Source: a virus
Taxonomy: Duplodnaviria > Heunggongvirae > Uroviricota > Caudoviricetes
Direction: 5' to 3' (one strand)
IMG/VR virus record: IMGVR_UViG_2667527770_000005
Span: 1-64,000 of that record
DNA length: 64,000 nucleotides
The notes below the pieces were generated by a model. It was not told where the DNA came from, searched no databases, and saw nothing but the letters and a program-made list of their open reading frames with translations. Made by a program: the position numbers and the translations under genes. Positions 7,786-40,776 of this stretch are shown here, piece by piece (position 1 is the first letter of the stretch; each line of letters begins with the position of its first letter).

Positions 7786-8086
7786 AATCGCAGCGCCATT
7801 AGGCGGAGATGCCATTATCGAATTTGATGATAATGAAGAAGTTTCCGGGCGTTTAAGCATTATCTCCGGTGACATTACCGAGGACATGATCGCTGAAGCC
7901 ATAGCTGGGGCAAATCCCAATAGCTATATGGGATTCGTTAACACCCTTGATGCTCCCGCAAGTGATGTTCTCCGAACGCTGCATCTTTACGCTGGCTGGT
8001 TTGTTGATTGGCCAGCAGTAGATGGTGGCGATGATGACGACGACGATGATGATTTTGGTGATCATGTAGACCAGATCGTATATTAA
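7775..8086 (+). CDS. small acidic protein ending in a poly-Asp tract, last gene of dar operon
   Basis: 103-aa ORF with GGDDDDDDDDFGD C-terminal region; overlaps ddrB stop. Confidence 0.45.
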   Translation: MQIKIAAPLGGDAIIEFDDNEEVSGRLSIISGDITEDMIAEAIAGANPNSYMGFVNTLDAPASDVLRTLHLYAGWFVDWPAVDGGDDDDDDDDFGDHVDQIVY

Positions 8087-8688
8087 CTCCCTGATTGTGC
8101 AAAAATAATCTGTTCTGATATGTTAATTGTGTACTTAAAGTAAACGCGTAGTGGCTTGCTTTAGGTTATGGAAGCAAGCCGTTACCTAATATGTTAGATC
8201 AAAAAAAATTAATTTTTGCGTTTCGCTCACCACATATTGAACACTTTAGTCGATCTTTTAATTCTTCCAGAGTCAATCCTGAAGCTACATATTGTTTAAT
8301 ATCTCTTCTTTATTGCATATTCAGAGGGTAAAGATATACACATACTAAAATGAATTAGCTTAGCTCGTTATTAATCAGGATTCGATGAGACCGCTCCATT
8401 TTAGGGAATAACATTTATAACTAAAACACATCGTCTTTAACTCTCACAATATAGATTCAATTTAATACCCAATCGGCAGTAATTAATTTGATTCTAATTT
8501 TTAAGTAGATTTCAAGTCTACATCCATTAAAGCCCTGTTAATTAACAGGCTATCTATTTTTGACAGTTATTATTTTTGTGATAATTTAATTGTTTGTCTT
8601 TTGTGCTTATTTTTGATCTATTTTGTCAATTTTTATTCTGTGAATTGAGTTTTTTCTAATAGTCCATTGGGTTTTCAAGGCTATTATT

Positions 8689-8704
8689 TGTGATTTTGAT
8701 CACA
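8689..8704. promoter_or_regulatory. CRP-like binding site upstream of porin gene
   Basis: TGTGATTTTGATCACA matches TGTGA-N6-TCACA exactly; about 120 bp upstream of the porin ATG in a very AT-rich region. Confidence 0.4.
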
Positions 8705-8816
8705 AAAATACCTTGATTTTTATTTGCAAAACTTGAAACACGAATCCAAAAAAGATAAACATTTGTCCGCAGTGACTTCTTTTCTACTGAAAAGTTCAAT
8801 CTAAAGGGCAAAAAAA

Positions 8817-9929
8817 ATGAAAAAAATCACAGTGGCACTCTCTGCGGTTGCAGCATCTGTCCTGATGGCAATGTCTGCGCAAGCAGCTGAAATCTACAAC
8901 AAAGACGGTAATAAACTGGATCTGTACGGCAAAGTTAACGCAGAACATTACTTCTCTTCTTCAGCTAGTGATGACGGAGATAAGACTTATGCTCGTCTGG
9001 GATTCAAAGGTGAAACTCAGATTAATGACCAGTTAACCGGTTTTGGTCAGTGGGAGTACGAATTTAAAGGTAACCGTACTGAATCTGAGGGCTCTGATAA
9101 AGATAAAACTCGTCTTGCATTTGCTGGCCTCCGTTTTGCTGATTATGGTTCAATCGACTATGGTCGCAACTATGGTGTAGCTTATGATATTGGCGCTTGG
9201 ACTGACGTGCTGCCTGAGTTTGGTGGAGATACCTGGACTCAGACCGATGTATTTATGACCCAGCGTGCTACTGGCGTAGCCACCTACCGTAACAATGATT
9301 TCTTCGGCCTGGTTGATGGTCTGAACTTTGCTTTGCAGTATCAAGGTAAAAATGATAGTGCTGCAAAAGTGAACAACTGGAAAGGCCGTGACGTAGTTGA
9401 ATCTAATGGTGATGGCTTTGGTCTGTCTGCTACTTACGATTATGAAGGATTTGGCGTTGGTGCAACCTATGCAAAATCTGATCGTACTGATGGGCAGGTA
9501 TCCTATGCTAAAAAGGATCCTCTGAATGCTTCTGGTAAAACTGCTGAAGTATGGGCTACTGGCCTGAAATATGACGCAAATAACATTTACCTGGCTGCAA
9601 CTTATTCTGAAACTCAGAATATGACTGTCTTCGGTGATGACTTTATCGCGAACAAGGCGAAAAACTTTGAAGCTGTTGCTCAATACCAGTTTGATTTCGG
9701 CCTGCGTCCGTCCATCGCTTATCTGCACTCTCGCGGTGAAAATATTGGTGCGTTCGGCAGCCAGGATCTGGTTGAATACATCGACTTGGGTGCGACTTAT
9801 TACTTCAACAAAAATATGTCCGCTTTCGTTGACTACAAGATCAACCTGATTGATGAAAGTGAATTTACCAAAAGATCTGAGGTTGCAACCGACAACATCG
9901 TTGCTGTTGGTATGACCTACCAATTCTAA
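8817..9929 (+). CDS. general diffusion porin (OmpC/OmpF/PhoE family), phage-borne
   Basis: 370-aa ORF; signal peptide [23 protein letters not shown] then [17 protein letters not shown], beta-barrel repeats, C-terminal ...VGMTYQF terminal Phe typical of OMPs. Confidence 0.9.
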
Positions 9930-14466: not shown

Positions 14467-17400
14467 ATGAACAAGCTATCTATAGGGGTGTTTCGCTGTT
14501 CAAGTGTCAGCGAAATATTGAAATACATTAGGGCAATAACATCTCACCGAGCGCCGATTAGATACGGCGTGGAAAAGGTGGAAGGCAAAAGCTATGACCG
14601 ACTACGCCGGGAGGCGAATCAGAAGGCGATAGATTTGCTTAATTCGCTGGTGGACGGCGCGACACTGACAGATGAACAGCGCCAGATCCTGGCTGGGTAC
14701 ACCGGCGAAGGCGGCATTGGCGGGTCCGTCTCCGAATATTACACACCAAAGCCGATCGCTGAAGGTGTCTGGGAGATCATGAAGCTCTACGGCGCGGACG
14801 TAGGTAACACTCTGGAACCATCGGCGGGCACCGGCGTTTTTAATGAGACAAAACCGGTTGGCACGGTGATGACCGCGACTGAGATCAGCAGTGTTTCCGG
14901 TCGTATAAACCAGCTGTTACATCCGGAAGACAGCGTACAGATTTCCCCGTTCGAACAACTGGCTGTAAGCACGCCTAACGATTCATTCGACCATGTGGTG
15001 GGTAACGTTCCGTTCGGTGGTCGTGATAACACACGCAACATCGATAAACCTTACGCAGAAGAAACGGACATGGGGTCTTACTTCATGCTCCGCATGTTGG
15101 ACAAGATAAAGCCTGGCGGATTCATGTGCGTGATTGTGCCGCCGTCCATTGTTTCAGGTTCAAACATGAAGCGGTTACGCCTGCGTCTATCCCGTAAAGC
15201 TGAATTTCTTGGCGCTCACCGCTTGCCTACCGGTACTTTTGACGCAAACGGGACCAGTACGGTCGTTGATGTGGTGCTGATGCGTAAACATCCGGCAGAG
15301 ATGGCTGAGAAAATCCCCCTGGTGGATGAAGGCACTCTTGAATCGGCAAATGTGCTTTGGCCAACGTTTATTTCTGGCAAGTGGTTTGAAAAGGACGGCC
15401 GCCGGTTTGTTCATGGTACTCAGGAGAAGGGATTCCAGGGGCGTATTGAGGTTCGTGCCGACGGGCAGATTGATAACCTGGCTCTTAAAGCGAAGCTGAT
15501 TCATCGTTTCGAAAGTCGTATCGACTGGTCTTTGCTCGATATGGCTGAACCGTCACCGACCGCAGATGTTGTTGATGAAGGGGAAATGCGCCTGATTAAT
15601 GGCGTATGGCAAAAATATGCTGGTGGTCGCTGGATTGAAGCTGATGCCGGGAAGGAGCTGAAGATTGATGTTGCCAGTTATGGCGCGGATAGCTGGGAGG
15701 CTCTTCAGCGTAACCTGACTACCACAGAAGGTCGTCTCGGCATGACATTTACCCAGATGGCAAATGTCCGCGATAAGTACACCACATCAATCAGCGACGA
15801 TATGGTGCAACTGGTGGACTGGATTAACAGCCAGCCTGAAAAATACCGTGAACGCTTGTATCGCGGGGCGATGATTGGCCGGATGTTAATTGAATATCAG
15901 GATATGAAGGCCGCCGGGCATAGTGCTGAACAAATCGAACAGCAGCGCCTTTCTCTGGTATCCCGTTTGCAGGCAGAGATTGACCGTTTTGGTAACCCCG
16001 GTCGCGGTCCGATAGCGAAATTGTCGGGGAGCGGTGCGCGCGCCTGGTTTGCTTTCCGTGGTGCGATTAAGCTGGATGGCACTATTTCTGACGAGCTGAC
16101 AGGAAAGCTGGTTACGCATGATTCCAGCGCCAGTTATGACTCCACCAGCTATCAGGACACCCTGCGTTATCTCTATAGCGATCTTACCCGCGATCCAATC
16201 CAGCTCGATGATTTCCGCCTTGCGTTTACCGGCGAACTGCCAGCCAGTGATGAAGAGTTGCTTAATTTATTGGCCAGCACCCCTGGTATTGCGGTTTCAC
16301 CGTATGGCGGGATTGTTCCGTTCGCCCGCGCCACCAGCGGCGACATTAACGAGATAGTGGCTCCAAAACAGGAATTTCTTGCCACACACCCCGACGGTCC
16401 AGTAAAGAACAACGTCCTTAATCAGCTGGCAGCGATCGAAGAGAAGCGCATCAAGACGCCAGCAGAGAATATCCGCTTTAAGCTCAATAGCCGTTGGTTC
16501 GACCGCTCCGTCATTCTGGAATTTTTGCAGGAAAACGGCTATCCGGATCTGCGCTATGTGCAGTCAGTGCAGCTGGAAGGCGACGAAATGGTTTCTGACA
16601 CCTATCACGGTGGTGATGGTCTGTTCGTCGGGCACCGATACGGTGTCGTCCAGCGCAAGGATAAAGAAACAGGCGAGATCCGCTACGAGTGGGACCGTAA
16701 ATCGGGTGAAAACGCGACCGGGTTCCCGGCACAGCTGGAAAAGTATCTCAATGGTGCGCGTATCGGTGGCAAAGATAGCGCGACGGCGAACGGCTACCGC
16801 GAGCAGATGGCACTGCTTGAGGACCAGTTCAATAAGTGGATCAAGACGCACGATCGCTACGATGAGCTGGTTGCCAAATACAACGATGTGTTCAATAGCA
16901 ATATCCCGTATGAACACTCTGGCGATCCGCTTGGGTTGAAGGGATTAAGCGGTAAGCGCCAGCCATTTGATTACCAGAATAGCGAGGTGCGCCGACTGTC
17001 CGAAGATGGGCGCGGCATCCTGGGCTTCGGCACCGGGCTGGGTAAAACCACGACCGCGCTGGCGCTTGAGGCGTTCAACTATGAGAACGGTCGCTCTACC
17101 CGTACTGCGTATGTAGTGCCTAAATCAGTGCTGGAAAATTGGTATTACGAAGCAAAAGAATTCCTGAGTGAAGAGGCATTCAGTAACTACTTGTTCGTCG
17201 GTCTTGATGTGCTGATGGATGGCGATCAGATTCGCCAGGTGCCGGTGCTCAATGAGAACGGTAAACCTGTTCTTGGTACTGATGGCACTCCAGTTATGCG
17301 CGATGCTCTTAAGCTGGCAGATGAAGCCACTATCACGGCGCGGATGAACGCGATCCCGCACTCAAATTACCGTGCAGTCGTGTTTACCAAAGAACAATAC

Positions 17401-20400
17401 GCCCGCATTCCGCTACGTGATGACACCGTAGATGAGCATGCACAGGATATGCTTTATGACTTCGTTGCAGCCGGGCGCGTAGCCAGCGCAATGGACTCCG
17501 ACTCCCACCGCAAAGAGGCCGCGCGTCGCCGGGTATTGTCGGAGTATTCAGATACCGGCACCGAAAAAGCAGAGAAGTATCCGTACTTTGAGGATATGGG
17601 CTTCGATAGTGTGATCGCCGACGAAGGTCACAACTACCGCAATAGCTATAAAAATGGTCGCGAAGCGTCACAACTGGCCTATCTGCCCACCAGCGCGGTG
17701 GCGCAATCGGCGCGAGATATGGCAATTAAAAACGCGTACCTGATGAAAAAGAATGGCGGGCGCGGGCCGGTTCTCCTGACTGCAACGCCAGTCGTTAACA
17801 CCCCGATCGATGCATACAACATGCTTTCTCATGTTCTGCCGAAGGAATACTGGCAGAACATGGGGATCTACGGTCCTGATGACTTCGTTAAATTCTTCGG
17901 CAAGACCAGGCTGGAAACGGTACAGAAAATTAGCGGTGAAGTTGAAGAAAAAATGGCGCTGGTGGGCTTTGAAAACCTTGATGCGCTGCGCGGTATATTC
18001 CATCGCTGGGTAACGCTTAAAACGGCGGAAGACGTTAAGGATACCGTGGAGATCCCGGAGCTGGACGAACACCAGCAGGATGCACCACTTACTGAAGAAC
18101 AACTGGCGGCGTATGAAGAATTGCGTCAGCAGGCGGAAGCGGCGGCCAAAGCCAACAATGGCGTAACGACCTCGGTCAATGAAGACGGCGTGATTGAGCA
18201 CGAGAAAGCCCGTCCGATCTTCTCAATAATCAGGGATATGGACCGCGTATGTACTGACATGGACCTGTACTATCGCCGGATCACCTATCGTTTCCTGCCG
18301 GAGTACGCCGATGCGGTGCAGCAGCTGGCGGACAGTTTGCCTAAACAAGCCACCAGCGAAGACGACGACAGTGATGATTCAATCACGCAGCAATCGCAAT
18401 ACTCCCTGATAGATAAGGGCGAGTTTATTCAGTTGCAGGTTCCGGAAGCGTTCGAGCAGGAAGTGAATAAGCGCCTGGCCAGGTTTGGCATTGACGAACA
18501 GACCGTAACTCACCCCGTTACGCCGAAATACGCGAAGCTGATCGCCACGCTGAAGGAGTTTTTCCCGGAAGGTAAGCAAATCATCTTCACCGATGAAAAA
18601 ACGCAGCACCAGAAGCTCAAGCGCATTATCTGCAATGCTCTAAACCTTGAACCTTCAAAGGTGGGGATCCTGAATGCTCAGACGGTTGCCGAGGCAGGTA
18701 AAACCGGTAAGAAACTGAAAGCGGTTAAACCGCCGAAAGAGCTACCGGATGAACCAACAGATGCACAGATAGCGAAATACAACGAGCAAATGGCTCTGTA
18801 TGACGCCTATATCGCGCAGCAAAATGAAATGTCGTTGGGCGGTCTGGAAAAGATTGCAGCCGACTTCCAGGAGGGCCGGACTCCGATCATCATCTGCAAC
18901 AAAAAGGCAGAGGTGGGTATCAACCTGCATCGAGGAACGACTGACATCCATCATCTGACGTTGCCATGGACACCAGCCAGCATCGCACAACGTAACGGTC
19001 GCGGTGCACGAGTTGGCTCCAACCGTGCAAGCGTTCGCGTTCACTACTACTGCGGCAAGGGGTCTTTCGATGAATACCGACTGAAGACGCTGAAGCGTAA
19101 AGCAGGCTGGATCTCCGATATCCTCCGTTCAGATAAGTCAGAAATGGAGAACGCCGACGCCAATGACATGATCGAAATGCAGATGTATACCGCGAAGGAT
19201 GACGGCGAACGTCTGGCAATGATGCAGGTTCAAATGGATAAGGCGAAAGCTGCGAAACGCGCTCGCCAGAAAGAACAGGCTACTATCGACCTTCAGAACT
19301 ACATCAAGGCGCAGCACGCAGCTGGTGAGGATGTGGAGGTACTTACCGCTGAATTGGAGCGAAGCAAAGCGGAACTTGAAAAGACCACCGCCGAGGTAGC
19401 TAAATTCAAACAGGCGGTAATGGCCAAAGCAGCTGATAACGCAGACTGGAAAGCCCGCTGGGGTAGCGTCCATCACACAGACCGTATGTTGTTAGCACAG
19501 TATCGCGCGTCGTTGAAAAGCGCCATTCAGCGCAAGGCTAATATCTCTCAGGCCATCTCCCGCTATGAGAAATTATTGAACCGTACTCAGAAGGCCGCGA
19601 CGGATATCAAACGCCTGCGCCCGCTGGTGGAGGATGCAATAAATAAAGGCATTCTGGATGTTGATCCTGATCTGGTTAACCATGCGAATGAGTTCCTTGT
19701 TATCGGCGATCGCTCATGGCGTGTAGGCCAATACTATGATTGTGCCGGTGATATCGTTCGCATTAAGTCGCTGGACTTCGACAGCCAGCGCGCAGACGTG
19801 GAGATCATCTTTACCTTCAAAGGCACCAAATCGGGTAACTGGGATGTGAAGACGCTGGATAAACAGGTTGATGTAACTCCCGATGAAGATGCTGTTATGC
19901 AGAAAATCAGTGGTGGCGTCTCCATCGCCGGGATTAACGACATCATTTCCTGTGACGATTTCTACCGTTTCCAGCAGCGCGGCATGATCAAAATCACTGA
20001 CTCATACGGCGTTCAGACTACAGAGTCAGGCTATAGCATCGATTTTGTTGGTACCTATACGGACCCACTGAAGCATGCGGTTTACCCGGATCGCCGTGAC
20101 GGCGCGCTGAAGTCGTCAATTGCAAAATGGGTGCTTGGTATGATGTCGGAAGGGAATAACCGCCAGATCCGTTCGGCAGAAACATTCCTGGTTGAACTGT
20201 TTGGCTCCAATTATGGCGATGTAATCGCGTCATACGGAGATACGCTATCCCCTGAAGCAATTCAGGAGAAAATAGCGGATGCGATCGCCAGAATGCCGGA
20301 AAAAACAAGCCAGGGGGCTACTCGTAACGGGGATTCTGAACTTGAAGTCACCAATGCCATTTTCGGTACCAATGAGTTCCGGGCGTCAGATTATGAGATC

Positions 20401-21234
20401 ACCACAGCACAGTTTGGCACCATTGGCATTTACAGCAATAAAGCCGAGATCAAGCAGGCAATGGACGCAGCAAGCGCGCGCATCGCAGCAGAACGGGAAG
20501 CCAATCTGAATCATGCAGTCGCCGCGCTGACTCAATCGTGGGTAACAGCAATCAGGGAGGCCGCCACCACAGGGAAAATCACACCTGCAATAGCGGATGT
20601 CGTAAACGACGGCTCTAAATTTATGGATGCCTATCAAATGGATGCGGTGAAGTTGCCATCAGCCTATGGTCAACTCAGCTATCGCATGACCTACAACCTG
20701 GTATCAATGTTTTCCGACCTTGCCATCCTTGGGCTGGTGGATCTTAACGAGGTTACGCCGGAATTGCTCAGCATGCGCAAGAATCATGTGGAGATATTGC
20801 AGAGAATTAACACGGTTCTTGCCGGGCGCACCGATGAAGAGAAACAGGCCGACGCTGATCGGATAAACCTAGCCCTTGGCAACATCACGGAGGAAGAGAT
20901 TGCCGCCAGAAACGAGAAACAAGAAGAGTTATCATCAATACAGGGTGATGCCACCAGCATAGCTCAGTCTCTTGGTCTGAATTATCGCGTATCCACCGCC
21001 GACCTGAAGATGATGTACGCACCAAAATTCGCCGCTGGCGAGGTATTTGGGCTTCAGGAAGCCTCAGGCATGAAAGGCGTTCTTTTCCGTGCGAAAGACG
21101 CAATCAAGGCGAAATTCGGCGCTCGCTGGCTGCCAGCGAAGGCGAAGAACAGCGATTTCCCGGGTAACTGGTGGATTATCGAGACAAAACACAACGTGGC
21201 GGACGTTCTGGCCGTCATCCAACAATACGCATAA
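14467..21234 (+). CDS. darB: DarB, giant methyltransferase-helicase anti-restriction head protein
   Basis: 2255-aa ORF; N-terminal N6-adenine MTase-like motif (DHVVGNVPFG), downstream superfamily-2 helicase motifs (GTGLGKTT Walker A, ADEGH box). Confidence 0.9.
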   Translation: MNKLSIGVFRCSSVSEILKYIRAITSHRAPIRYGVEKVEGKSYDRLRREANQKAIDLLNSLVDGATLTDEQRQILAGYTGEGGIGGSVSEYYTPKPIAEGVWEIMKLYGADVGNTLEPSAGTGVFNETKPVGTVMTATEISSVSGRINQLLHPEDSVQISPFEQLAVSTPNDSFDHVVGNVPFGGRDNTRNIDKPYAEETDMGSYFMLRMLDKIKPGGFMCVIVPPSIVSGSNMKRLRLRLSRKAEFLGAHRLPTGTFDANGTSTVVDVVLMRKHPAEMAEKIPLVDEGTLESANVLWPTFISGKWFEKDGRRFVHGTQEKGFQGRIEVRADGQIDNLALKAKLIHRFESRIDWSLLDMAEPSPTADVVDEGEMRLINGVWQKYAGGRWIEADAGKELKIDVASYGADSWEALQRNLTTTEGRLGMTFTQMANVRDKYTTSISDDMVQLVDWINSQPEKYRERLYRGAMIGRMLIEYQDMKAAGHSAEQIEQQRLSLVSRLQAEIDRFGNPGRGPIAKLSGSGARAWFAFRGAIKLDGTISDELTGKLVTHDSSASYDSTSYQDTLRYLYSDLTRDPIQLDDFRLAFTGELPASDEELLNLLASTPGIAVSPYGGIVPFARATSGDINEIVAPKQEFLATHPDGPVKNNVLNQLAAIEEKRIKTPAENIRFKLNSRWFDRSVILEFLQENGYPDLRYVQSVQLEGDEMVSDTYHGGDGLFVGHRYGVVQRKDKETGEIRYEWDRKSGENATGFPAQLEKYLNGARIGGKDSATANGYREQMALLEDQFNKWIKTHDRYDELVAKYNDVFNSNIPYEHSGDPLGLKGLSGKRQPFDYQNSEVRRLSEDGRGILGFGTGLGKTTTALALEAFNYENGRSTRTAYVVPKSVLENWYYEAKEFLSEEAFSNYLFVGLDVLMDGDQIRQVPVLNENGKPVLGTDGTPVMRDALKLADEATITARMNAIPHSNYRAVVFTKEQYARIPLRDDTVDEHAQDMLYDFVAAGRVASAMDSDSHRKEAARRRVLSEYSDTGTEKAEKYPYFEDMGFDSVIADEGHNYRNSYKNGREASQLAYLPTSAVAQSARDMAIKNAYLMKKNGGRGPVLLTATPVVNTPIDAYNMLSHVLPKEYWQNMGIYGPDDFVKFFGKTRLETVQKISGEVEEKMALVGFENLDALRGIFHRWVTLKTAEDVKDTVEIPELDEHQQDAPLTEEQLAAYEELRQQAEAAAKANNGVTTSVNEDGVIEHEKARPIFSIIRDMDRVCTDMDLYYRRITYRFLPEYADAVQQLADSLPKQATSEDDDSDDSITQQSQYSLIDKGEFIQLQVPEAFEQEVNKRLARFGIDEQTVTHPVTPKYAKLIATLKEFFPEGKQIIFTDEKTQHQKLKRIICNALNLEPSKVGILNAQTVAEAGKTGKKLKAVKPPKELPDEPTDAQIAKYNEQMALYDAYIAQQNEMSLGGLEKIAADFQEGRTPIIICNKKAEVGINLHRGTTDIHHLTLPWTPASIAQRNGRGARVGSNRASVRVHYYCGKGSFDEYRLKTLKRKAGWISDILRSDKSEMENADANDMIEMQMYTAKDDGERLAMMQVQMDKAKAAKRARQKEQATIDLQNYIKAQHAAGEDVEVLTAELERSKAELEKTTAEVAKFKQAVMAKAADNADWKARWGSVHHTDRMLLAQYRASLKSAIQRKANISQAISRYEKLLNRTQKAATDIKRLRPLVEDAINKGILDVDPDLVNHANEFLVIGDRSWRVGQYYDCAGDIVRIKSLDFDSQRADVEIIFTFKGTKSGNWDVKTLDKQVDVTPDEDAVMQKISGGVSIAGINDIISCDDFYRFQQRGMIKITDSYGVQTTESGYSIDFVGTYTDPLKHAVYPDRRDGALKSSIAKWVLGMMSEGNNRQIRSAETFLVELFGSNYGDVIASYGDTLSPEAIQEKIADAIARMPEKTSQGATRNGDSELEVTNAIFGTNEFRASDYEITTAQFGTIGIYSNKAEIKQAMDAASARIAAEREANLNHAVAALTQSWVTAIREAATTGKITPAIADVVNDGSKFMDAYQMDAVKLPSAYGQLSYRMTYNLVSMFSDLAILGLVDLNEVTPELLSMRKNHVEILQRINTVLAGRTDEEKQADADRINLALGNITEEEIAARNEKQEELSSIQGDATSIAQSLGLNYRVSTADLKMMYAPKFAAGEVFGLQEASGMKGVLFRAKDAIKAKFGARWLPAKAKNSDFPGNWWIIETKHNVADVLAVIQQYA

Positions 21235-21267: not shown

Positions 21268-21708
21268 ATGGCCACACTATCTGATACAATAAAACCGAAT
21301 AAAACATATCTTGAGGCGGTACTCCGTACAGCGTTGTTAGGAAAGACAGAAGACGAATACGTTGATTTCTTCCTGTCAGGGCTACGCGGGCGATTACTGA
21401 AAAATCCCCGCCTGTACCGCAGCTATGGTCCATACTGGCCGGAAATTAAAAAATTATTACTGGAGCGCGGTTATGGTAATTTCGGTCGTCTCGTTGACCG
21501 TGACGTTCGCAAAATTTACCGTTATGACCGCCCGGCGCTAACACTCATAGCCGCGACGCTCTACAGCCAGGAGCGTTTTGATAATGGTCAGATATACTCA
21601 GCCTGGCATTTACTGCCAGTGCCTGAAGAAGTTGACGACCAGGACTATGAGTTTGAGTCTTACGATTTGGAAGTTGAAGCCTTGGCACAGGCTGGAGAGA
21701 AAACTTGA
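21268..21708 (+). CDS. ulx: Ulx-like protein
   Basis: 146-aa ORF between darB and lxc-like gene; by synteny. Confidence 0.5.
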   Translation: MATLSDTIKPNKTYLEAVLRTALLGKTEDEYVDFFLSGLRGRLLKNPRLYRSYGPYWPEIKKLLLERGYGNFGRLVDRDVRKIYRYDRPALTLIAATLYSQERFDNGQIYSAWHLLPVPEEVDDQDYEFESYDLEVEALAQAGEKT

Positions 21709-21953
21709 AAAAGCGATACTACACAGTAAAGCATGGGACGCTACGAGCATTACAAGAGTTTGCTGACAAGCATAACGTTGAGGTGCGCAGGGAAGGGGGA
21801 AGTAAAGCTCTGCGCATGTACCGTCCGGACGGAAAATGGCGGACGGTCGTCGATTTCAAAACTAACAGCGTTCCCCAGGGCGTCCGCGACCGGGCATTCG
21901 AGGAATGGGAGCAGATCATCATAGATAACGCATTGCTCCTGAATGCTGATTAA
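21705..21953 (+). CDS. lxc: Lxc-like small regulator
   Basis: 82-aa ORF overlapping ulx stop by 4 nt; by synteny. Confidence 0.5.
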   Translation: MKKRYYTVKHGTLRALQEFADKHNVEVRREGGSKALRMYRPDGKWRTVVDFKTNSVPQGVRDRAFEEWEQIIIDNALLLNAD

Positions 21954-21958
21954 GAACT

Positions 21959-21985
21959 CTCCGGCCTAGGGAGATTAGGCCGGAG
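21959..21985. terminator. stem-loop between convergent lxc and SIR2-like gene
   Basis: CTCCGGCCT-N9-AGGCCGGAG 9-bp stem; A/T-rich flanks. Confidence 0.45.
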
Positions 21986-21994
21986 ATAAATATA

Positions 21995-23299
21995 CTATAT
22001 AAACTTAGATATAATATCGTGAATCTGTTGTAGCGGGATTTCTTCCATCTTACTCTTAATAAGAGAGCGGTTAGATGCTGTCAGTGAAGGCCATTTTGTT
22101 TTCCAGGCTAGATATGCTCGCCATGAGTAGCCTGTTTCGTAAGGTTTATTCATATAAGTCATTGAGTGTTCAACCGCATGTATGTATTTTTTCTCAAAGT
22201 TGGTTCCTTTTACTTCAAATAAACTACCGAAATAAATAAGCCATTTTGCCAGGTGTTCATACTGCTCCCATGCGCCAGACTCTTTAGTAAGATCTATTTT
22301 TTTATCTATTATATCACAAAAAACATTTAATACCTTTTCATCATTCCAGCTATATCCAGATGATGAAATGGAGGAAATGATATGATAAAAAGAATCCTCT
22401 AACTTCAAGAACTCTATTTTATACTCTCTTCCGTTTTTTATTACCGATTTGATTGAGTGCCTCAATTTGTCTTTTATTTTTTTTGCTTCTGGAATTTTCT
22501 TGTTAAGTTTTCTAAAGAAATCAGACACCTCTGTTTTATCTATAACCCTAATCCCAAAGCAGGAAAAATAGTAATCTTTAATAGGTTGCAATAGTTTTCC
22601 TCGGGAAATAAGGAAAATATTGGAGGACATTACGTTGTCCCGTGAAAATACCTTATATTCATTTATAATCGCCTTGAGGTTCGCGTCACTTAGAGAATAG
22701 CCAAGAATAACAATAGTGTTTTCATGTAGAACTGTGCTTAGTTTATTTGAAAAGTAAGAATTACCATTTATAAATCTGAAATAATCCTCGCTAGTAACAA
22801 CCATATCTGATGGGGAGTCTATAGAGCCGTGAACATGGTAGACTTTAACCTCACAATTATATTTTGGAATTGGCAGGCCGGGGGTGATTGTACACGTTCG
22901 ATTCTCTCCAGCCAGTTTTTCTGCTAACTTGTCATAATTTGTCGTAATTACTTTAAATGTGTTTTCTTTGAAAAAGTCTTGAATATATTCAATTGATGGA
23001 TCAAGTTCGATTGAGGCTATGATTTTCTCAATCTCCTGGTAAATATTTTTCCCCGAAAGTATAAATTTTAGTGCAATAACCTGAGCAGCCTCTTCAAGGC
23101 TAAGGTCTTTTGCTTTTCCATCAGGAAATAATTCCTCTTTGAGTGAGTCACCATCCTTCAATAAACCGCACAGTTGCTCCAATAAAGATTGCCAACTTGG
23201 GGCTTTATCATCAGAAACAGCCTTTGAAAATCCAGTGCCTGTAAGAAAGCACAGCCTATGTGTAGCTGCTGCATAGGCAATTTCTATATACTCGCTCAT
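21995..23299 (-). CDS. SIR2-like (sirtuin-fold NADase) protein with uncharacterised C-terminal domain; candidate defence gene
   Basis: 434-aa ORF; GTGFS (res 21-25), TTNYD (119-123), YHVHGS (154-159) match SIR2-family signatures; about 35% GC versus a more GC-rich backbone; occupies the mat-lxc slot. Confidence 0.75.
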   Translation of the reverse strand: MSEYIEIAYAAATHRLCFLTGTGFSKAVSDDKAPSWQSLLEQLCGLLKDGDSLKEELFPDGKAKDLSLEEAAQVIALKFILSGKNIYQEIEKIIASIELDPSIEYIQDFFKENTFKVITTNYDKLAEKLAGENRTCTITPGLPIPKYNCEVKVYHVHGSIDSPSDMVVTSEDYFRFINGNSYFSNKLSTVLHENTIVILGYSLSDANLKAIINEYKVFSRDNVMSSNIFLISRGKLLQPIKDYYFSCFGIRVIDKTEVSDFFRKLNKKIPEAKKIKDKLRHSIKSVIKNGREYKIEFLKLEDSFYHIISSISSSGYSWNDEKVLNVFCDIIDKKIDLTKESGAWEQYEHLAKWLIYFGSLFEVKGTNFEKKYIHAVEHSMTYMNKPYETGYSWRAYLAWKTKWPSLTASNRSLIKSKMEEIPLQQIHDIISKFI

Positions 23300-23355
23300 T
23301 ACTTACTCCATTTACTTATAGTTCTACGGAGAAGTATACCCTAATGCATTGACGT

Positions 23356-23997
23356 TTATAGATAATTTCCTTTTCCTGTTAATACTCCCTTAGGCACCTG
23401 TTTTTGTGCCAGCGTTTGGGTTCCGCGAATTATGTTAATCAGAGGGCTTAGTAACGATGGTTCCTGGCGTGCCTCAACTTCTCCAGCCATTGCCCTGATG
23501 TAGTCTGCGCTGGCAACGTTGTTGTATTCCGTCGCAAAGCAACATAGTAACGTCAGAACATGCTCTGTCGTTATTTCGCTCCAGTTGATGTTGAAAAATT
23601 CATCGCCTTTTTTATCGTGTTCGGAATCGAAGATGCTTTGGTGGAGGATGTATTTGCCGGATTCCTTGCGCGGTAACTTGATCGCTTTCTGGCGTTCCAG
23701 CTCCTTGTAAATCTGCATTGCTTCAATCAGTACCGGCCTGCCGTTCATGAAGGGATCGCGCAACCTTACACGCTGGCCAACTCGACCAGTAATAAAGCTG
23801 TTTTCCTCTTCCACCAGCACGATAAAACCCTTTTCCTCTTTTTCTCGCAATTCGCGCAGCAGCTGGAGTTCCATGTCGCGGCGGCGTTCAGGGTAGCTGG
23901 TCCGCTCAGCCATTATCAGCTCGTTGTTGATCCATGCAGCAGTCATTGACGCCGGTTTGCCGACGCTCATCGAAACAACGCATATTTTCTTATCCAT
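23356..23997 (-). CDS. mat: Mat-like particle maturation protein
   Basis: ORF 23356..24024 in track begins with GTG; first ATG with AGGGG RBS is at 23997; position between ref and the res-mod slot as in P1. Confidence 0.55.
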   Translation of the reverse strand: MDKKICVVSMSVGKPASMTAAWINNELIMAERTSYPERRRDMELQLLRELREKEEKGFIVLVEEENSFITGRVGQRVRLRDPFMNGRPVLIEAMQIYKELERQKAIKLPRKESGKYILHQSIFDSEHDKKGDEFFNINWSEITTEHVLTLLCCFATEYNNVASADYIRAMAGEVEARQEPSLLSPLINIIRGTQTLAQKQVPKGVLTGKGNYL

Positions 23998-24185
23998 AGC
24001 GCCCCTACAAAAAAGAAAAGCCACCAGCGGCGGCTTAGCAATACAACTGAAGGTAGCGCCCGGTACTCAGACTGTGCCGTCCATGGAATATTTGAAAAGG
24101 GATCCATCCGTACCGGGCGTGTGATGATTCTGACTCAAGTCACTTGTCAGTTGTCAATCATTTAAGATTAAAAATAATATATTTA

Positions 24186-34743: not shown

Positions 34744-36302
34744 ATGAAAATGACAAGTATTCAACAACGTGCAGAGCTTCATCGTCAAATCTGGCAAATT
34801 GCTAACGATGTCAGAGGTTCGGTCGATGGATGGGATTTTAAGCAATACGTTCTGGGCGCGCTTTTCTACCGTTTTATCAGCGAAAATTTTTCCAGCTATA
34901 TTGAAGCCGGTGATGACAGCATCTGTTATGCGAAACTGGATGACAGCGTAATTACTGATGACATTAAAGACGATGCCATCAAAACCAAAGGCTACTTCAT
35001 CTACCCAAGTCAGCTTTTCTGCAACGTAGCTGCGAAAGCAAATACCAATGACAGACTGAATGCAGATTTAAACAGCATCTTCGTTGCTATCGAAAGTTCT
35101 GCTTACGGTTATCCTTCAGAAGCTGACATCAAAGGTTTGTTTGCTGATTTCGATACCACCAGTAACCGCCTGGGTAACACCGTTAAAGATAAAAATGCCC
35201 GCCTGGCTGCGGTTCTGAAAGGGGTTGAAGGGTTAAAACTTGGTGACTTCAACGAACATCAGATTGACCTGTTCGGTGATGCCTATGAGTTCCTGATTTC
35301 TAACTATGCGGCAAATGCCGGTAAGTCAGGCGGTGAGTTCTTTACACCGCAGCACGTCTCCAAGCTGATTGCACAACTGGCTATGCACGGGCAGACCAAC
35401 GTTAACAAAATCTACGACCCGGCAGCGGGTTCCGGCTCACTGTTGTTGCAGGCTAAAAAGCAGTTTGATAACCATATCATTGAAGAAGGCTTTTTCGGAC
35501 AGGAAATCAACCATACGACCTATAACCTGGCACGTATGAACATGTTTTTGCACAACATCAACTACGACAAGTTTGATATCAAGCTGGGCAATACGCTGAC
35601 TGAGCCGCACTTCAGAGATGAAAAACCGTTTGATGCCATCGTATCTAACCCACCGTATTCGGTGAAATGGATTGGCAGCGATGACCCGACGCTGATTAAC
35701 GATGAGCGTTTTGCCCCGGCTGGCGTTCTGGCCCCCAAATCCAAAGCTGACTTTGCGTTTGTATTACATGCGCTGAACTATCTTTCGGCCAAAGGTCGCG
35801 CTGCGATTGTCTGCTTCCCGGGCATTTTTTACCGTGGCGGCGCAGAGCAGAAAATCCGTCAGTATCTGGTCGATAATAACTATGTCGAAACCGTGATTTC
35901 ACTGGCTCCGAACCTGTTCTTTGGCACCACCATTGCCGTCAATATTCTGGTGTTGTCTAAACATAAAACCGATACCAAAGTTCAGTTTATTGACGCCAGC
36001 GAATTATTCAAAAAAGAGACTAACAACAATATCCTGACCGATGCCCATATCGAACAGATTATGCAGGTATTTGCCAGCAAGGAAGATGTTGCTCATCTGG
36101 CGAAATCAGTCGCGTTTGAGACTGTTGTCGCGAATGACTATAACCTGTCGGTGAGCAGTTATGTGGAAGCGAAAGATAACCGCGAAATTATCGATATTGC
36201 TGAGTTGAATGCAGAGCTGAAAACCACGGTCAGCAAAATCGACCAGTTGCGTAAAGATATTGATGCGATTGTAGCTGAAATTGAAGGCTGCGAGGTACAG
36301 AA

Positions 36303-36306
<4 letters not shown>
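34744..36306 (+). CDS. hsdM: type I R-M methyltransferase subunit HsdM (type IC, EcoR124 family)
   Basis: 520-aa ORF; AdoMet-binding region and catalytic VSNPPYS (NPPY) motif. Confidence 0.95.
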
Positions 36307-37538
<1,232 letters not shown>

Positions 37539-37659
37539 TTGACCATTGCTACCGACCGGGCCACCTTAACACCCGGTCAGTATATAGACTATTTTTTACA
37601 CGCTGGAAGTCACCATTAACGCCCTTCCGGCCCTTGCCAGACGGCACAAAGGATGCGCT

Positions 37660-40600
37660 ATGACTCATCAAACACACACCATTGCTGAATCCAATAACTT
37701 TATCGTTCTTGATAAATACATCAAAGCTGAGCAAACAGGCGACAGCTATCAGAGCGAATCGGACCTGGAACGTGAACTGATTCAGGACCTGCAAAATCAG
37801 GGCTATGAATTTATATCCGTAAAATCACAGTCAGCGATGCTGGCCAACGTTCGGGAACAGCTTCAGAGCCTCAATGGTGTGATGTTTAATGACAGCGAGT
37901 GGCGGCGTTTCACGGAGCAGTATCTGGACAACCCGAGCGATGGCATTCTGGATAAGACCCGTAAAATCCATATCGACTATATTTGCGACTTTATTTTTGA
38001 TGACGAGCGACTTGAGAACATCTATTTGATAGATAAAAAGAATCTCATGCGCAATAAGGTGCAGATTATCCAGCAGTTTGAACAGACGGGTTCTCATGCT
38101 AACCGTTATGACGTCACGATCCTGGTTAATGGCTTACCACTGGTACAAATCGAACTGAAAAAGCGCGGCGTGGCGATTCGTGAGGCTTTCAACCAGATAC
38201 ATCGTTACAGTAAAGAGAGTTTTAACAGCGAAAACTCCCTGTTTAAGTATCTGCAACTGTTTGTCATTTCTAACGGCACCGATACCCGTTATTTTGCCAA
38301 CACAACAAAGCGCGATAAAAACAGTTTTGACTTCACCATGAACTGGGCGAAATCAGACAACACGCTGATTAAAGACCTCAAAGATTTTACCGCTACCTTT
38401 TTCCAGAAACATACTCTGCTTAATGTTCTGGTGAACTACAGCGTTTTTGACAGCAGTCAGACGCTACTGGTGATGCGACCGTACCAGATTGCCGCCACCG
38501 AACGAATCTTATGGAAAATCAACAGCTCCTATAAAGCGAAAAACTGGTCTAACCCCGAAAGCGGTGGCTTTATCTGGCACACTACCGGTTCTGGTAAAAC
38601 ACTGACCAGCTTTAAAGCCGCGCGTCTGGCAACAGAACTGGACTTTATTGATAAAGTCTTCTTCGTGGTCGACAGGAAAGACCTCGATTACCAGACCATG
38701 AAGGAATACCAGCGTTTTTCGCCAGACAGCGTCAACGGCTCGGAAAATACCGCAGGTCTTAAACGAAATCTGGATAAGGACGATAACAAAATTATCGTCA
38801 CCACTATTCAGAAACTTAATAACCTGATGAAAGCAGAAAGCGACCTGCCTGTATACAATCAGCAAGTGGTGTTTATATTTGATGAATGCCACCGCAGCCA
38901 GTTTGGAGAAGCGCAGAAAAACCTGAAGAAGAAATTCAAACGCTATTATCAGTTTGGTTTTACCGGCACACCTATTTTCCCGGAAAACGCTTTAGGCTCA
39001 GAAACGACCGCCAGCGTATTTGGCCGTGAATTGCATTCGTATGTGATTACCGATGCGATTCGAGATGAAAAAGTGCTTAAATTCAAGGTGGACTACAACG
39101 ATGTGCGGCCACAGTTTAAGTCTTTAGAGACAGAAACCGACGAGAAAAAACTGAGTGCGGCTGAAAATCAGCAGGCGTTTCTTCATCCCATGCGTATACA
39201 GGAAATTACGCAATATATTCTGAATAACTTCCGCCAGAAGACCCACCGTACTTTCCCAGGTTCCAAAGGCTTTAATGCCATGCTGGCAGTGAGTAGCGTG
39301 GATGCCGCGAAAGCCTATTACGCGACGTTTAAACGGTTACAAGAGGAAGCAGCTAATAAATCGGCTACCTATAAACCGCTGCGTGTTGCGACAATCTTCT
39401 CCTTTGCCGCCAATGAAGAACAAAATGCCATTGGTGAAATTTCCGATGAAACTTTTGATACCAGCGCAATGGACAGCAGTGCTAAAGAGTTTCTTGACGC
39501 TGCAATTCGTGAGTATAACAGCTATTTTAAAACTAACTTCAGCACCGACGGTAACGGTTTTCAGAACTACTATCGCGATTTAGCCCAACGGGTTAAAAAT
39601 CAGGATATCGATCTGTTAATTGTCGTGGGGATGTTTTTAACTGGCTTCGATGCTCCAACATTGAACACGCTATTCGTCGATAAAAACCTGCGTTTTCACG
39701 GCTTGATGCAGGCATTTTCCCGCACCAACCGTATTTATGATGCAACTAAAACCTTCGGTAATATCGTCACTTTCCGGGATCTGGAACGCTCAACTATTGA
39801 TGCCATAACGCTGTTTGGTGACAAAAACACCAAAAATGTGGTTTTAGAAAAGAGTTATGCAGAGTATATGGAAGGCTTTACTGATGCTGCCACTGGTGAA
39901 GCTAAGCGCGGCTTTATGGCAGTAGTTTCAGAACTGGAACAACGGTTCCCTGACCCTGCCAGTATTGAAAGTGAAAAAGAGAAGAAAGACTTCGTTAAAC
40001 TGTTTGGTGAATACCTGCGTGCCGAGAACATCCTGCAAAACTATGATGAATTTGCCACGCTGAAAGCCCTGCAACAAATCGATCTTAGCGATCCTGTTGC
40101 GGTAGAAAAATTCAAAGCAGAACATTATGTGGATGATGAAAAATTCGCTGAATTGCAAACAATTCGTCTCCCTGCTGATCGCAAGATTCAGGATTATCGT
40201 TCTGCCTATAACGATATTCGCGACTGGCAGCGCCGTGAGAAAGAAGCTGAGAAAAAAGAGAAATCAACCACTGACTGGGATGACGTAGTTTTTGAGGTCG
40301 ATTTGCTGAAGTCTCAGGAAATAAACCTGGATTATATCCTTGGACTGATTTTCGAACACAACAGACAAAATAAAGGCAAGGGCGAAATGATCGAAGAGGT
40401 CAAACGCTTAATTCGTTCAAGCCTAGGGAACCGTGCTAAAGAGGGCCTGGTGGTCGATTTTATTCAGCAAACGAACCTGGATGATTTACCGGACAAAGCC
40501 AGCATCATTGACGCATTCTTTACGTTTGCTCAACGCGAACAGCAACGTGAAGCAGAAGCATTGATAAAAGAAGAAAATCTCAATGAAGATGCAGCAAAAC

Positions 40601-40776
40601 GCTATATTCGCACGTCTTTAAAACGCGAATATGCCACCGAAAATGGCACAGAATTAAACGAAACATTACCAAAACTTAGTCCGTTAAATCCGCAATATAA
40701 AACGAAAAAACAGGCAGTTTTCCAGAAAATCGTCTCGTTTATTGAGAAGTTTAAAGGCGTAGGCGGAAAAATATAG
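37660..40776 (+). CDS. hsdR: type I restriction endonuclease subunit HsdR
   Basis: 1038-aa ORF; PD-(D/E)xK region [13 protein letters not shown], helicase motif I TGSGKT and motif II DECH. Confidence 0.95.

Follow-up and report, generated by a model that had tools for sequence, protein, structure and literature searches.

A SIR2-family gene in the restriction-modification slot of a P1-like phage-plasmid

What function might be served by a lone SIR2-family gene lying where phage P1 carries its type III restriction-modification genes? The question is raised by the stretch of DNA analysed here (positions 1 to 64,000 of IMG/VR record IMGVR_UViG_2667527770_000005, hereafter the window), which corresponds to a P1-like phage-plasmid in reversed orientation relative to the P1 map. 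An earlier note, made from the DNA letters, had picked out a 434-amino acid (aa) open reading frame (ORF) at 21995-23299 as a candidate single-gene defence system, and the ORF is borne out, on the minus strand and with an ATG start codon. The analysis outlines a protein that combines a predicted nicotinamide adenine dinucleotide (NAD)-cleaving SIR2 core with a helical domain of putative sensor or regulatory function, carried as the only gene of a mobile cassette in a cargo hotspot, and a role in anti-phage defence is likely. The DNA of the ORF is identical in plasmid NZ_CP080254.1, where it is annotated as WP_000006034.1. Its features in the window are the following.

21995..23299, minus strand: SIR2-family ORF, stop codon included; 434 aa, ATG start; Pfam SIR2_2
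22538..23299, minus strand: SIR2 domain of the N-terminus, aa 1-254, of NADase Rossmann type; helices inserted at about aa 26-115
23225..23239, minus strand: GTGFS glycine-rich loop, aa 21-25; family-invariant, NAD binding presumed by analogy with the sirtuin fold
22931..22945, minus strand: TTNYD, aa 119-123; N121 aligned to DSR2 N133
22823..22840, minus strand: YHVHGS, aa 154-159; H157 aligned to DSR2 H171
21998..22537, minus strand: C-terminal all-helical domain, aa 255-434; long linker helix, then a HEAT/ARM-like alpha-solenoid

An NADase-type SIR2 core with conserved catalytic residues

The N-terminal region matches Pfam SIR2_2 (PF13289) with an expectation value (E) of 1.6e-23 and a score of 83.8 bits (cut-off 24.5); the match joins aa 117-245 to profile positions 3-133 of 141. 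The same Pfam scan returned no match to the canonical sirtuin family SIR2 (PF02146) at E up to 0.1, and no domain besides SIR2_2 (no STAND NTPase, SLOG or Macro) was identified in the protein. PADLOC and NCBIfam recognise the SIR2 domain only. PADLOC matches are confined to SIR2 cores, the best being PDC-S25 (E 5e-24, only profile positions 127-283 of 517), followed by the models for ThsA (E 7e-18), LmuA (E 2e-13, profile positions 21-221 of 433 only) and Dsr2 (E 3e-8). The NCBIfam equivalogs for Dsr2 and Dsr1, which have cut-offs of 1400 bits, gave scores of 30.6 and 21.2, respectively, with only about aa 111-212 aligning. Sequence searches of the PDB matched KomC, ThsA (7uxt, 6lhx, 8bto; E 3e-9 for 7uxt) and DSR2 (8k98 among others). 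A model computed by AlphaFold2 from an alignment of 30 homologues reached a predicted local distance difference test (pLDDT) value of 83.7 and a predicted template modelling (pTM) score of 0.79, and the best 50 Foldseek matches of this model against the PDB were all DSR2, ThsA or KomC. Pfam, the structural model and Foldseek hence agree on the SIR2/NADase fold that the earlier note had surmised. The SIR2 signal is, as far as sequence can tell, far beyond chance, given the Pfam score, the hundreds of full-length homologues and a ratio of nonsynonymous to synonymous substitution rates (dN/dS) of 0.12.

The three motifs read by eye from the translation lie where they had been placed, and all are invariant in the 30 homologues, in which the family-invariant residues include G21-S25, N121, D123, H155 and H157. 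In the HMMER alignment, N121 corresponds to DSR2 N133 and H157 to DSR2 H171, the latter having been mutated in PDB entries that bear the title 'DSR2 (H171A)'. The catalytic residues had been proposed as N121 and H155/H157; the alignment to DSR2 and ThsA upholds N121 and H157, and H155 drops out as the catalytic histidine. Among the families considered, the protein is a member of Pfam SIR2_2 only, and it possesses the catalytic Asn/His pair of SIR2-type defence NADases. Residues 1-254 are consequently described here as an NADase-type SIR2 core with intact catalytic Asn and His, for which NADase activity is predicted.

The name carried by the RefSeq and UniRef entries, 'SIR2 family NAD-dependent protein deacylase' ('SIR2 family protein' in plasmid records), raises the alternative of a protein-modifying sirtuin, a deacylase or ADP-ribosyltransferase whose target would be a protein of the host or of a phage, in a defensive or regulatory role and with no bulk NAD+ depletion. 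SIR2 chemistry permits transfer reactions, and a solenoid C-terminal domain could recruit a substrate. The deacylase name is nevertheless a generic family label and not an assayed function, and the match is to SIR2_2, not to canonical SIR2. The protein contains only six cysteines (17, 44, 136, 149, 247 and 328) and no CxxC pair, and therefore lacks the zinc ribbon of protein-deacetylating sirtuins, with its Zn-binding Cys4 module of two CxxC. Since its nearest structural and sequence relatives are, in addition, all NADase defence effectors, a protein-modifying role is unlikely.

A private helical C-terminal domain

The remaining 180 or so residues, in which no motif had been recognised from the sequence alone, turned out to be a real conserved domain of a type that is not recognised by Pfam or by PDB sequence search. 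Residues 255-434 returned no match in either, and AlphaFold2 confidently models them as a 32-residue helix followed by a helix stack. Fourteen residues of this domain are invariant in the 30 homologues (W344, Q346, Y347, W353, S379, M380, G390, S392, W393, Y396, W399, W403, N410 and R411), and the domain is seen only fused to the SIR2 domain of this family. Mean pairwise identity is 0.56 for the C-terminal domain against 0.79 for the SIR2 core, indicating that the former evolves faster. The domain is putatively assigned a sensor or regulatory function. That it senses a phage protein directly is suggested by analogy with known systems, a proposal that falls somewhat short of an even chance.

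Relation to known SIR2 defence systems

The best structural match, DSR2 of Bacillus subtilis (PDB 8k98, 8wkt and others), is likewise a single polypeptide with no partner gene, with an N-terminal SIR2 NADase domain, the same Asn and His and an all-helical, HEAT-like region after SIR2. It differs in being about 1000 aa long, against 434 aa, and in showing no similarity detectable outside the SIR2 domain; the DSR1/DSR2 equivalogs (about 1200 aa) were not matched over their full length. DSR2 is triggered by a phage tail-tube protein, which is bound through its HEAT-like domains. Thoeris ThsA (SIR2-SLOG; PDB 6lhx, 7uxt, 8bto) is closer in size (about 475 aa) and also presents an N-terminal SIR2 NADase core, but it has a SLOG domain, whereas the C-terminal domain of the 434-aa protein is all-helical, with no SLOG or Macro. 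No TIR or ThsB gene adjoins the SIR2 gene, whose flanks are lxc/ulx/darB on one side and mat/ref on the other. Regarding SIR2-HerA (Nezha), no HerA ATPase was found in the cassette and none is conserved among the neighbours of homologues; regarding SIR2-STAND (Avs5) and SIR2-APAZ/pAgo (SPARSA), neither a STAND domain nor an adjacent short pAgo gene was detected. The absence of an adjacent TIR, HerA, pAgo or STAND gene, already remarked on in the earlier note, follows from both flanks being P1 backbone.

An orphan LmuA of the Lamassu system was considered because of the similar length and the colinear N-terminal match, and was rejected, the C-terminal domain lying off the model and no LmuB gene being present. 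The slot is devoid of SMC genes, and SMC_N was found in 2 of the 136 homologue neighbours scanned; the one re-scanned protein with an SMC_N match proved to be an ABC transporter ATPase that scores under the SMC_N cut-off.

Lone SIR2_2 genes as cargo of mobile-element hotspots already make up a recognised class of defence candidates, represented by PDC-S25 and by the SIR2_2 protein of pFR88. Both resemble the present gene in being single-gene SIR2_2 proteins at such hotspots, and differ in being longer and in having different C-terminal parts, so that only the SIR2 core aligns: most of the 517-528-position PDC-S25 model is unmatched, and the pFR88 protein shows 25% identity over aa 18-231. The literature searches found no mention of WP_000006034, no relevant paper linking P1-like elements or phage-plasmids to SIR2, and no stand-alone SIR2 defence of this type; PDC-S25 is mentioned in two papers, one of which deals with phage adsorption in O157:H7. 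As no PD-T4, PD-T7 or PD-lambda model matched, the Sir2 homologue described in Vassallo 2022 presumably belongs to another family.

Genomic context of homologues

The neighbours of homologues were surveyed at 70 loci, which come from various species of gamma-, beta- and alphaproteobacteria plus a few others. No neighbour family is conserved across these loci: the biggest cluster is present in 6 of the 70, with varying distance and orientation. The recurrent clusters (aconitase, ABC transporters, GGDEF/EAL proteins, histidine kinases, LysR regulators, integrase and DegP) reflect large paralogous families or the local synteny of related species. The expectation that the protein acts without a partner is thereby sustained, since none is found in the cassette and none is conserved across the 70 loci from other species.

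Defence-type genes appear among the neighbours, including type I restriction-modification genes, ThsB-like TIR, PDC-S66, PDC-S31, mads genes, PD-T7-5, dGTPase, retron reverse transcriptases and PDC-S05. In one Pseudomonas locus (L033), Gabija (GajA, GajB) and an Mrr-like nuclease lie near the homologue, and a Halomonas homologue is accompanied by HNH, DUF4145, HSDR_N, DUF87 and FRG genes. A 56%-identical homologue (P0083) is located on Escherichia coli chromosomes (L002-L005, gene at 8001-9311), where it directly follows the integrase gene that marks one end of a lambdoid prophage. This prophage adjoins the ccm operon, the gene holding a moron-typical position; in one of the four loci (L005) the prophage looks degraded and the SIR2 gene is kept.

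These surveys bear on a second alternative, according to which the protein is an effector dependent on a signal or sensor from the chromosome or from elsewhere on the plasmid, as in the ThsA model, the helical domain binding a small molecule or partner protein. Thoeris ThsA responds to a TIR-made nucleotide, ThsA is among the closest sequence relatives of the SIR2 core, defence effectors are modular, and ThsB-like TIR proteins make up 3 of the 136 neighbours scanned. A 225-aa gene downstream of the homologue in three Pseudomonas loci (L033, L034 and L036) was also considered as a ThsB-like TIR and was rejected, having no PADLOC or Pfam match; the ThsB-like TIR neighbours belong to other loci. 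Set against this alternative are the all-helical C-terminal domain, neither SLOG nor Macro, the lack of a partner conserved in the 70 loci, and the movement of a one-gene cassette into P1 and prophage ends. For the rest of the window, no TIR family is present among the best 25 of 108 PADLOC families. Dependence on an outside signal is accordingly improbable.

The mat-lxc interval is a cargo hotspot

The SIR2 gene is bordered on both sides by P1 backbone genes, as listed here.

14467-21234, plus strand: darB, P1 backbone
21268-21708, plus strand: ulx, P1 backbone
21705-21953, plus strand: lxc, P1 backbone; left border of the slot
23356..24024, minus strand: mat, P1 backbone; right border of the slot, directly upstream of the SIR2 gene and codirectional with it

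Beyond mat, the window continues with ref, c8 and cre, and c1 lies further along. In reference P1 (NC_005856) the order is mat, res, mod (interrupted by IS5), lxc, ulx and darB, so that the SIR2 gene occupies the exact place of EcoP1 in P1. That the gene lies between mat and lxc in the res-mod position of P1, as the earlier note had it, is confirmed by this comparison and by that of the junctions. The EcoP1 type III res-mod system shares with the SIR2 gene the mat-lxc interval and the condition of a prophage-carried defence; it differs in comprising two genes, in targeting DNA and marking self by methylation, and in orientation, the SIR2 gene being codirectional with mat in the P1 orientation and res and mod opposite. 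There is no homology between the two. The SIR2 gene is also more AT-rich than its flanks, as had been noticed, with a GC content of 0.32-0.37 in 500-nt windows and 0.353 over the coding sequence, against 0.52 for darB and 0.49 for mat-ref (35% against about 50%).

Cassette borders were established by aligning the window with blastn to P1, JL22, 673R5 and RCS47, in the last of which the slot is empty. The shared backbone breaks off at 21951-21967 and is found again from 23356-23362 (from 23427 in JL22), which leaves as insert the SIR2 ORF, its 56-bp leader and some 40 bp on the downstream side. The aligned P1-like elements hence present it as a one-gene insert in a variable slot, with the following elements.

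21954..23359, no strand: whole cargo cassette, delimited by the breaks in blastn backbone homology
23300..23355, minus strand: 56-bp cassette leader, from the mat stop codon to the SIR2 start codon
21958..21986, no strand: stable GC-rich hairpin (stem of 11-12 bp) in the gap that separates the stop codons of the convergent lxc and SIR2 genes

The hairpin has folding energies of -20.8 and -22.2 kcal/mol and a z score of about -5 on both strands, and is a probable bidirectional terminator, lacking a clean U-tract. The mobile unit is the SIR2 gene with its 56-bp leader and this terminator-like hairpin.

Slot cargo was surveyed over 706 PLSDB plasmids carrying the flanking backbone and 21 phage records. 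The SIR2 cassette is held by 62 of the 706 plasmids at a coverage of at least 80%. Other slot contents include RelA/SpoT, a GNAT acetyltransferase, YaaC, PIN, DUF2971, EAL+HTH, DUF4145 and type III restriction-modification genes, and the slot is empty in RCS47 and many plasmids. In JL22 it holds a PDC-S34-like gene. In Salmonella phage SJ46 it holds a 373-aa RelA/SpoT protein with a PADLOC match to PDC-S33, in the same orientation as the SIR2 gene; this gene (CapRel/PDC-S33-type) is intact in SJ46 and split into two ORFs in 673R5. From phage SJ46 a single-gene defence named CapRel-SJ46, in which sensor and toxin are fused, has been validated by experiment (PMC9712102); it is presumably the SJ46 slot gene, an identity assumed here. 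CapRel-SJ46 unites in a single chain a toxic enzyme at the N-terminus and, at the C-terminus, a sensor or regulator that binds a phage protein, a layout whose logic the SIR2 protein would share. Its enzyme is unrelated, being a tRNA-pyrophosphorylating toxSAS, and its function has been validated experimentally, whereas the SIR2 gene is a candidate.

The variability and low GC content of the res-mod region in P1-like elements have already been published (PMC9603915), and a DefenseFinder survey of P1 phage-plasmids reported type III restriction-modification, dGTPase, PrrC and CapRel, and no SIR2 system. With conserved borders and alternative cargos at the same junctions, the P1 mat-lxc interval is a cargo hotspot, and both the slot and the contexts of the homologues are typical of defence cargo. 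Further slot cargos, mostly uncharacterised, may be single-gene defence candidates as well.

An apparent complete type I restriction-modification system was also observed in the window at 34744-40773 on the plus strand (ORFs 34744-36303, 36303-37535 and 37660-40773). PADLOC matches to MTase_I, Specificity_I and REase_I were obtained in the window, with E down to 0, and were assigned to the three ORFs by size only. This system is present on an element that lacks the type III res-mod of P1.

Distribution, alleles and selection

The SIR2 gene is carried by 66 PLSDB plasmids, one of them named pPC6-mcr1, and the ORF is intact in the 65 that cover at least 80% of the gene. The allele was found in 70 of 5426 complete E. 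coli genomes (about 1.3%), with 71 of its 72 places on plasmids and an intact ORF in 69 genomes; the P1-like carrier plasmids circulate in E. coli, Salmonella and Klebsiella. Homologues of about 434 aa number in the hundreds at 54-61% identity, and the wider family forms 72 clusters (50% identity) at E <= 1e-30, identity falling to about 25% in matches that span the full length. PHROG 7567, a family of 434 aa, matches the protein over its whole length and is nearly identical to it. In the INPHARED phage collection, megablast did not find the gene and tblastn gave only weak SIR2-core matches to unrelated phages. Unlike in INPHARED, the family is present in PLSDB plasmids and in IMG/VR contigs. 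The latter contribute about 28 full-length members, some 12 of them on non-P1 viral contigs at 46-57% identity; in five of these contigs the gene lies at most 2.5 kb from the contig end.

In other P1-like plasmids the mat-lxc slot is taken by a second SIR2 allele, WP_032271833, a protein of 435 aa with 59% identity. In an example from NZ_CP027575.1 (L093), its region at 1038-2345, compared with window positions 21995-23355, presents a 5' leader that is 97% identical and an unrelated 3' flank, which suggests that the coding region has been replaced behind a conserved leader.

The gene is under strong purifying selection. Comparison with a 93%-identical allele yielded an overall dN/dS of 0.12, with values of 0.15 for the C-terminal domain and 0.04 for the catalytic core. 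Against a 96%-identical allele the C-terminal domain shows 13 nonsynonymous and 3 synonymous changes, an excess that is suggestive, the counts being small.

Expression of the cassette and points against a defence role

Several observations weigh against the defence reading. The first concern expression. A Shine-Dalgarno sequence (GGAG) is present at 23306-23309, 7 nt upstream of the SIR2 start codon, but a consensus-only scan, which weak AT-rich promoters could escape, detected no consensus sigma-70 promoter in the 56-bp leader. No terminator was found between mat and the SIR2 gene (a leader hairpin is not significant, z -0.95), and no C1 operator was detected in that interval. P1 mat possesses a C1 operator, by which it is C1-repressed, and a late promoter. 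Given the lack of a consensus promoter in the leader and the repression of mat by C1, expression of the SIR2 gene in the lysogen is not assured; the gene may have a weak AT-rich promoter of its own or depend on read-through from mat. In addition, the enrichment of defence genes among the neighbours of homologues is a qualitative judgement made without a background control. The defence function of this protein family is a prediction, and the gene a candidate system. The SIR2_2 protein from a P4 hotspot (pFR88), tested under its native promoter, is placed among the 'additional tested systems' and not among the validated ones (Rousset et al. 2022, PMC9122126), so that candidates of this kind can fail on small phage panels.

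Two observations on mat itself were made alongside. P1 mat (NC_005856 2716-3468) is annotated with 250 aa, the frame in the window has 222 aa from a GTG codon, and the RefSeq and RCS47 versions have 213 aa; the Mat N-terminus varies or is mis-annotated across P1-like genomes. Just upstream of the mat start codon, at 24018-24036 on the minus strand, lies a terminator-like hairpin, AAGCCGCCGCTGGTGGCTT and then a T-run, downstream of a stretch matching P1 Pmat/LPmat.

Read-through from mat would favour a third alternative, in which the gene serves the P1-like element's own life cycle and not the exclusion of other phages: transcribed together with mat under its C1-repressed and late promoters, it would act in lytic growth or as a plasmid addiction or competition module. 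The SIR2 gene is indeed codirectional with mat, 56 bp downstream of it, with neither terminator nor consensus promoter between them, and the regulation of P1 mat fits such a scheme. On the other hand, empty slots in RCS47 and many plasmids indicate that the P1 cycle can do without the cargo, the RelA/SpoT (CapRel-type) gene of SJ46 shares slot and orientation, homologues exist outside phages, in chromosomal islands, and a promoter scan limited to the consensus misses weak AT-rich promoters. A life-cycle role is on these grounds very unlikely.

AT-rich foreign DNA in E. coli is often silenced by H-NS. That this AT-rich foreign gene, with no promoter detected, is just a decaying or silent passenger with no current function is scarcely credible in view of the ORF being intact in 65 plasmids and 69 complete E. 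coli genomes, of the low dN/dS, above all in the catalytic core, and of catalytic and C-terminal residues that are invariant across proteobacterial classes.

Proposed function

A defence role as such is likely, and the protein most probably functions in the manner of DSR2 or ThsA. Less certain is the fuller proposal that we favour by analogy with DSR2 and CapRel-SJ46, in which the protein would be a self-contained, single-polypeptide sensor-effector NADase causing abortive infection; taken as a whole chain, this proposal is moderately probable. In the uninfected lysogen, the SIR2 enzyme would be held inactive by its own C-terminal domain, by its oligomeric state, or by both. The cue would come from infection by a competing phage and would most likely be a phage protein to which the helical domain binds, in parallel with the tail-tube protein for DSR2 and the capsid protein for CapRel-SJ46. 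The activated SIR2 domain would then convert NAD+ into ADP-ribose and nicotinamide, metabolism would collapse and the infection would be aborted. The infected cell would die or arrest, and sibling cells carrying the plasmid would be protected.

A bolder version, which we place only just short of an even chance, is that the protein represents a minimal 434-aa SIR2 immune receptor, a 'mini-DSR2' of independent origin, whose family-specific 180-residue solenoid, as a sensor domain not described before, would recognise a phage protein directly and so unleash the NADase activity. Allele swaps behind the conserved leader would retune its specificity, and the slot would be a hotspot like those of P2 and P4.

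Significance

The protein can be regarded as a plausible and unsurprising variant of the well-known SIR2 defence type and not as a new principle, a compact stand-alone candidate with a private sensor-like domain. If active, it would be among the smallest self-contained SIR2 sensor-effector defences, and its short sensor domain would be tractable for structural work on the gating of NADase effectors. For P1-like elements, the finding presents the mat-lxc slot as an exchangeable defence locus, and a catalogue of slot contents offers a cheap route to further single-gene systems, such as the YaaC, DUF2971, PIN, GNAT and EAL+HTH cargos. The SIR2 gene itself is a clean, abundant and readily testable candidate on clinically relevant phage-plasmids and, being carried by circulating P1-like plasmids in about 1.3% of E. 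coli genomes, could shape phage susceptibility and the outcome of phage therapy in clinical and livestock strains.

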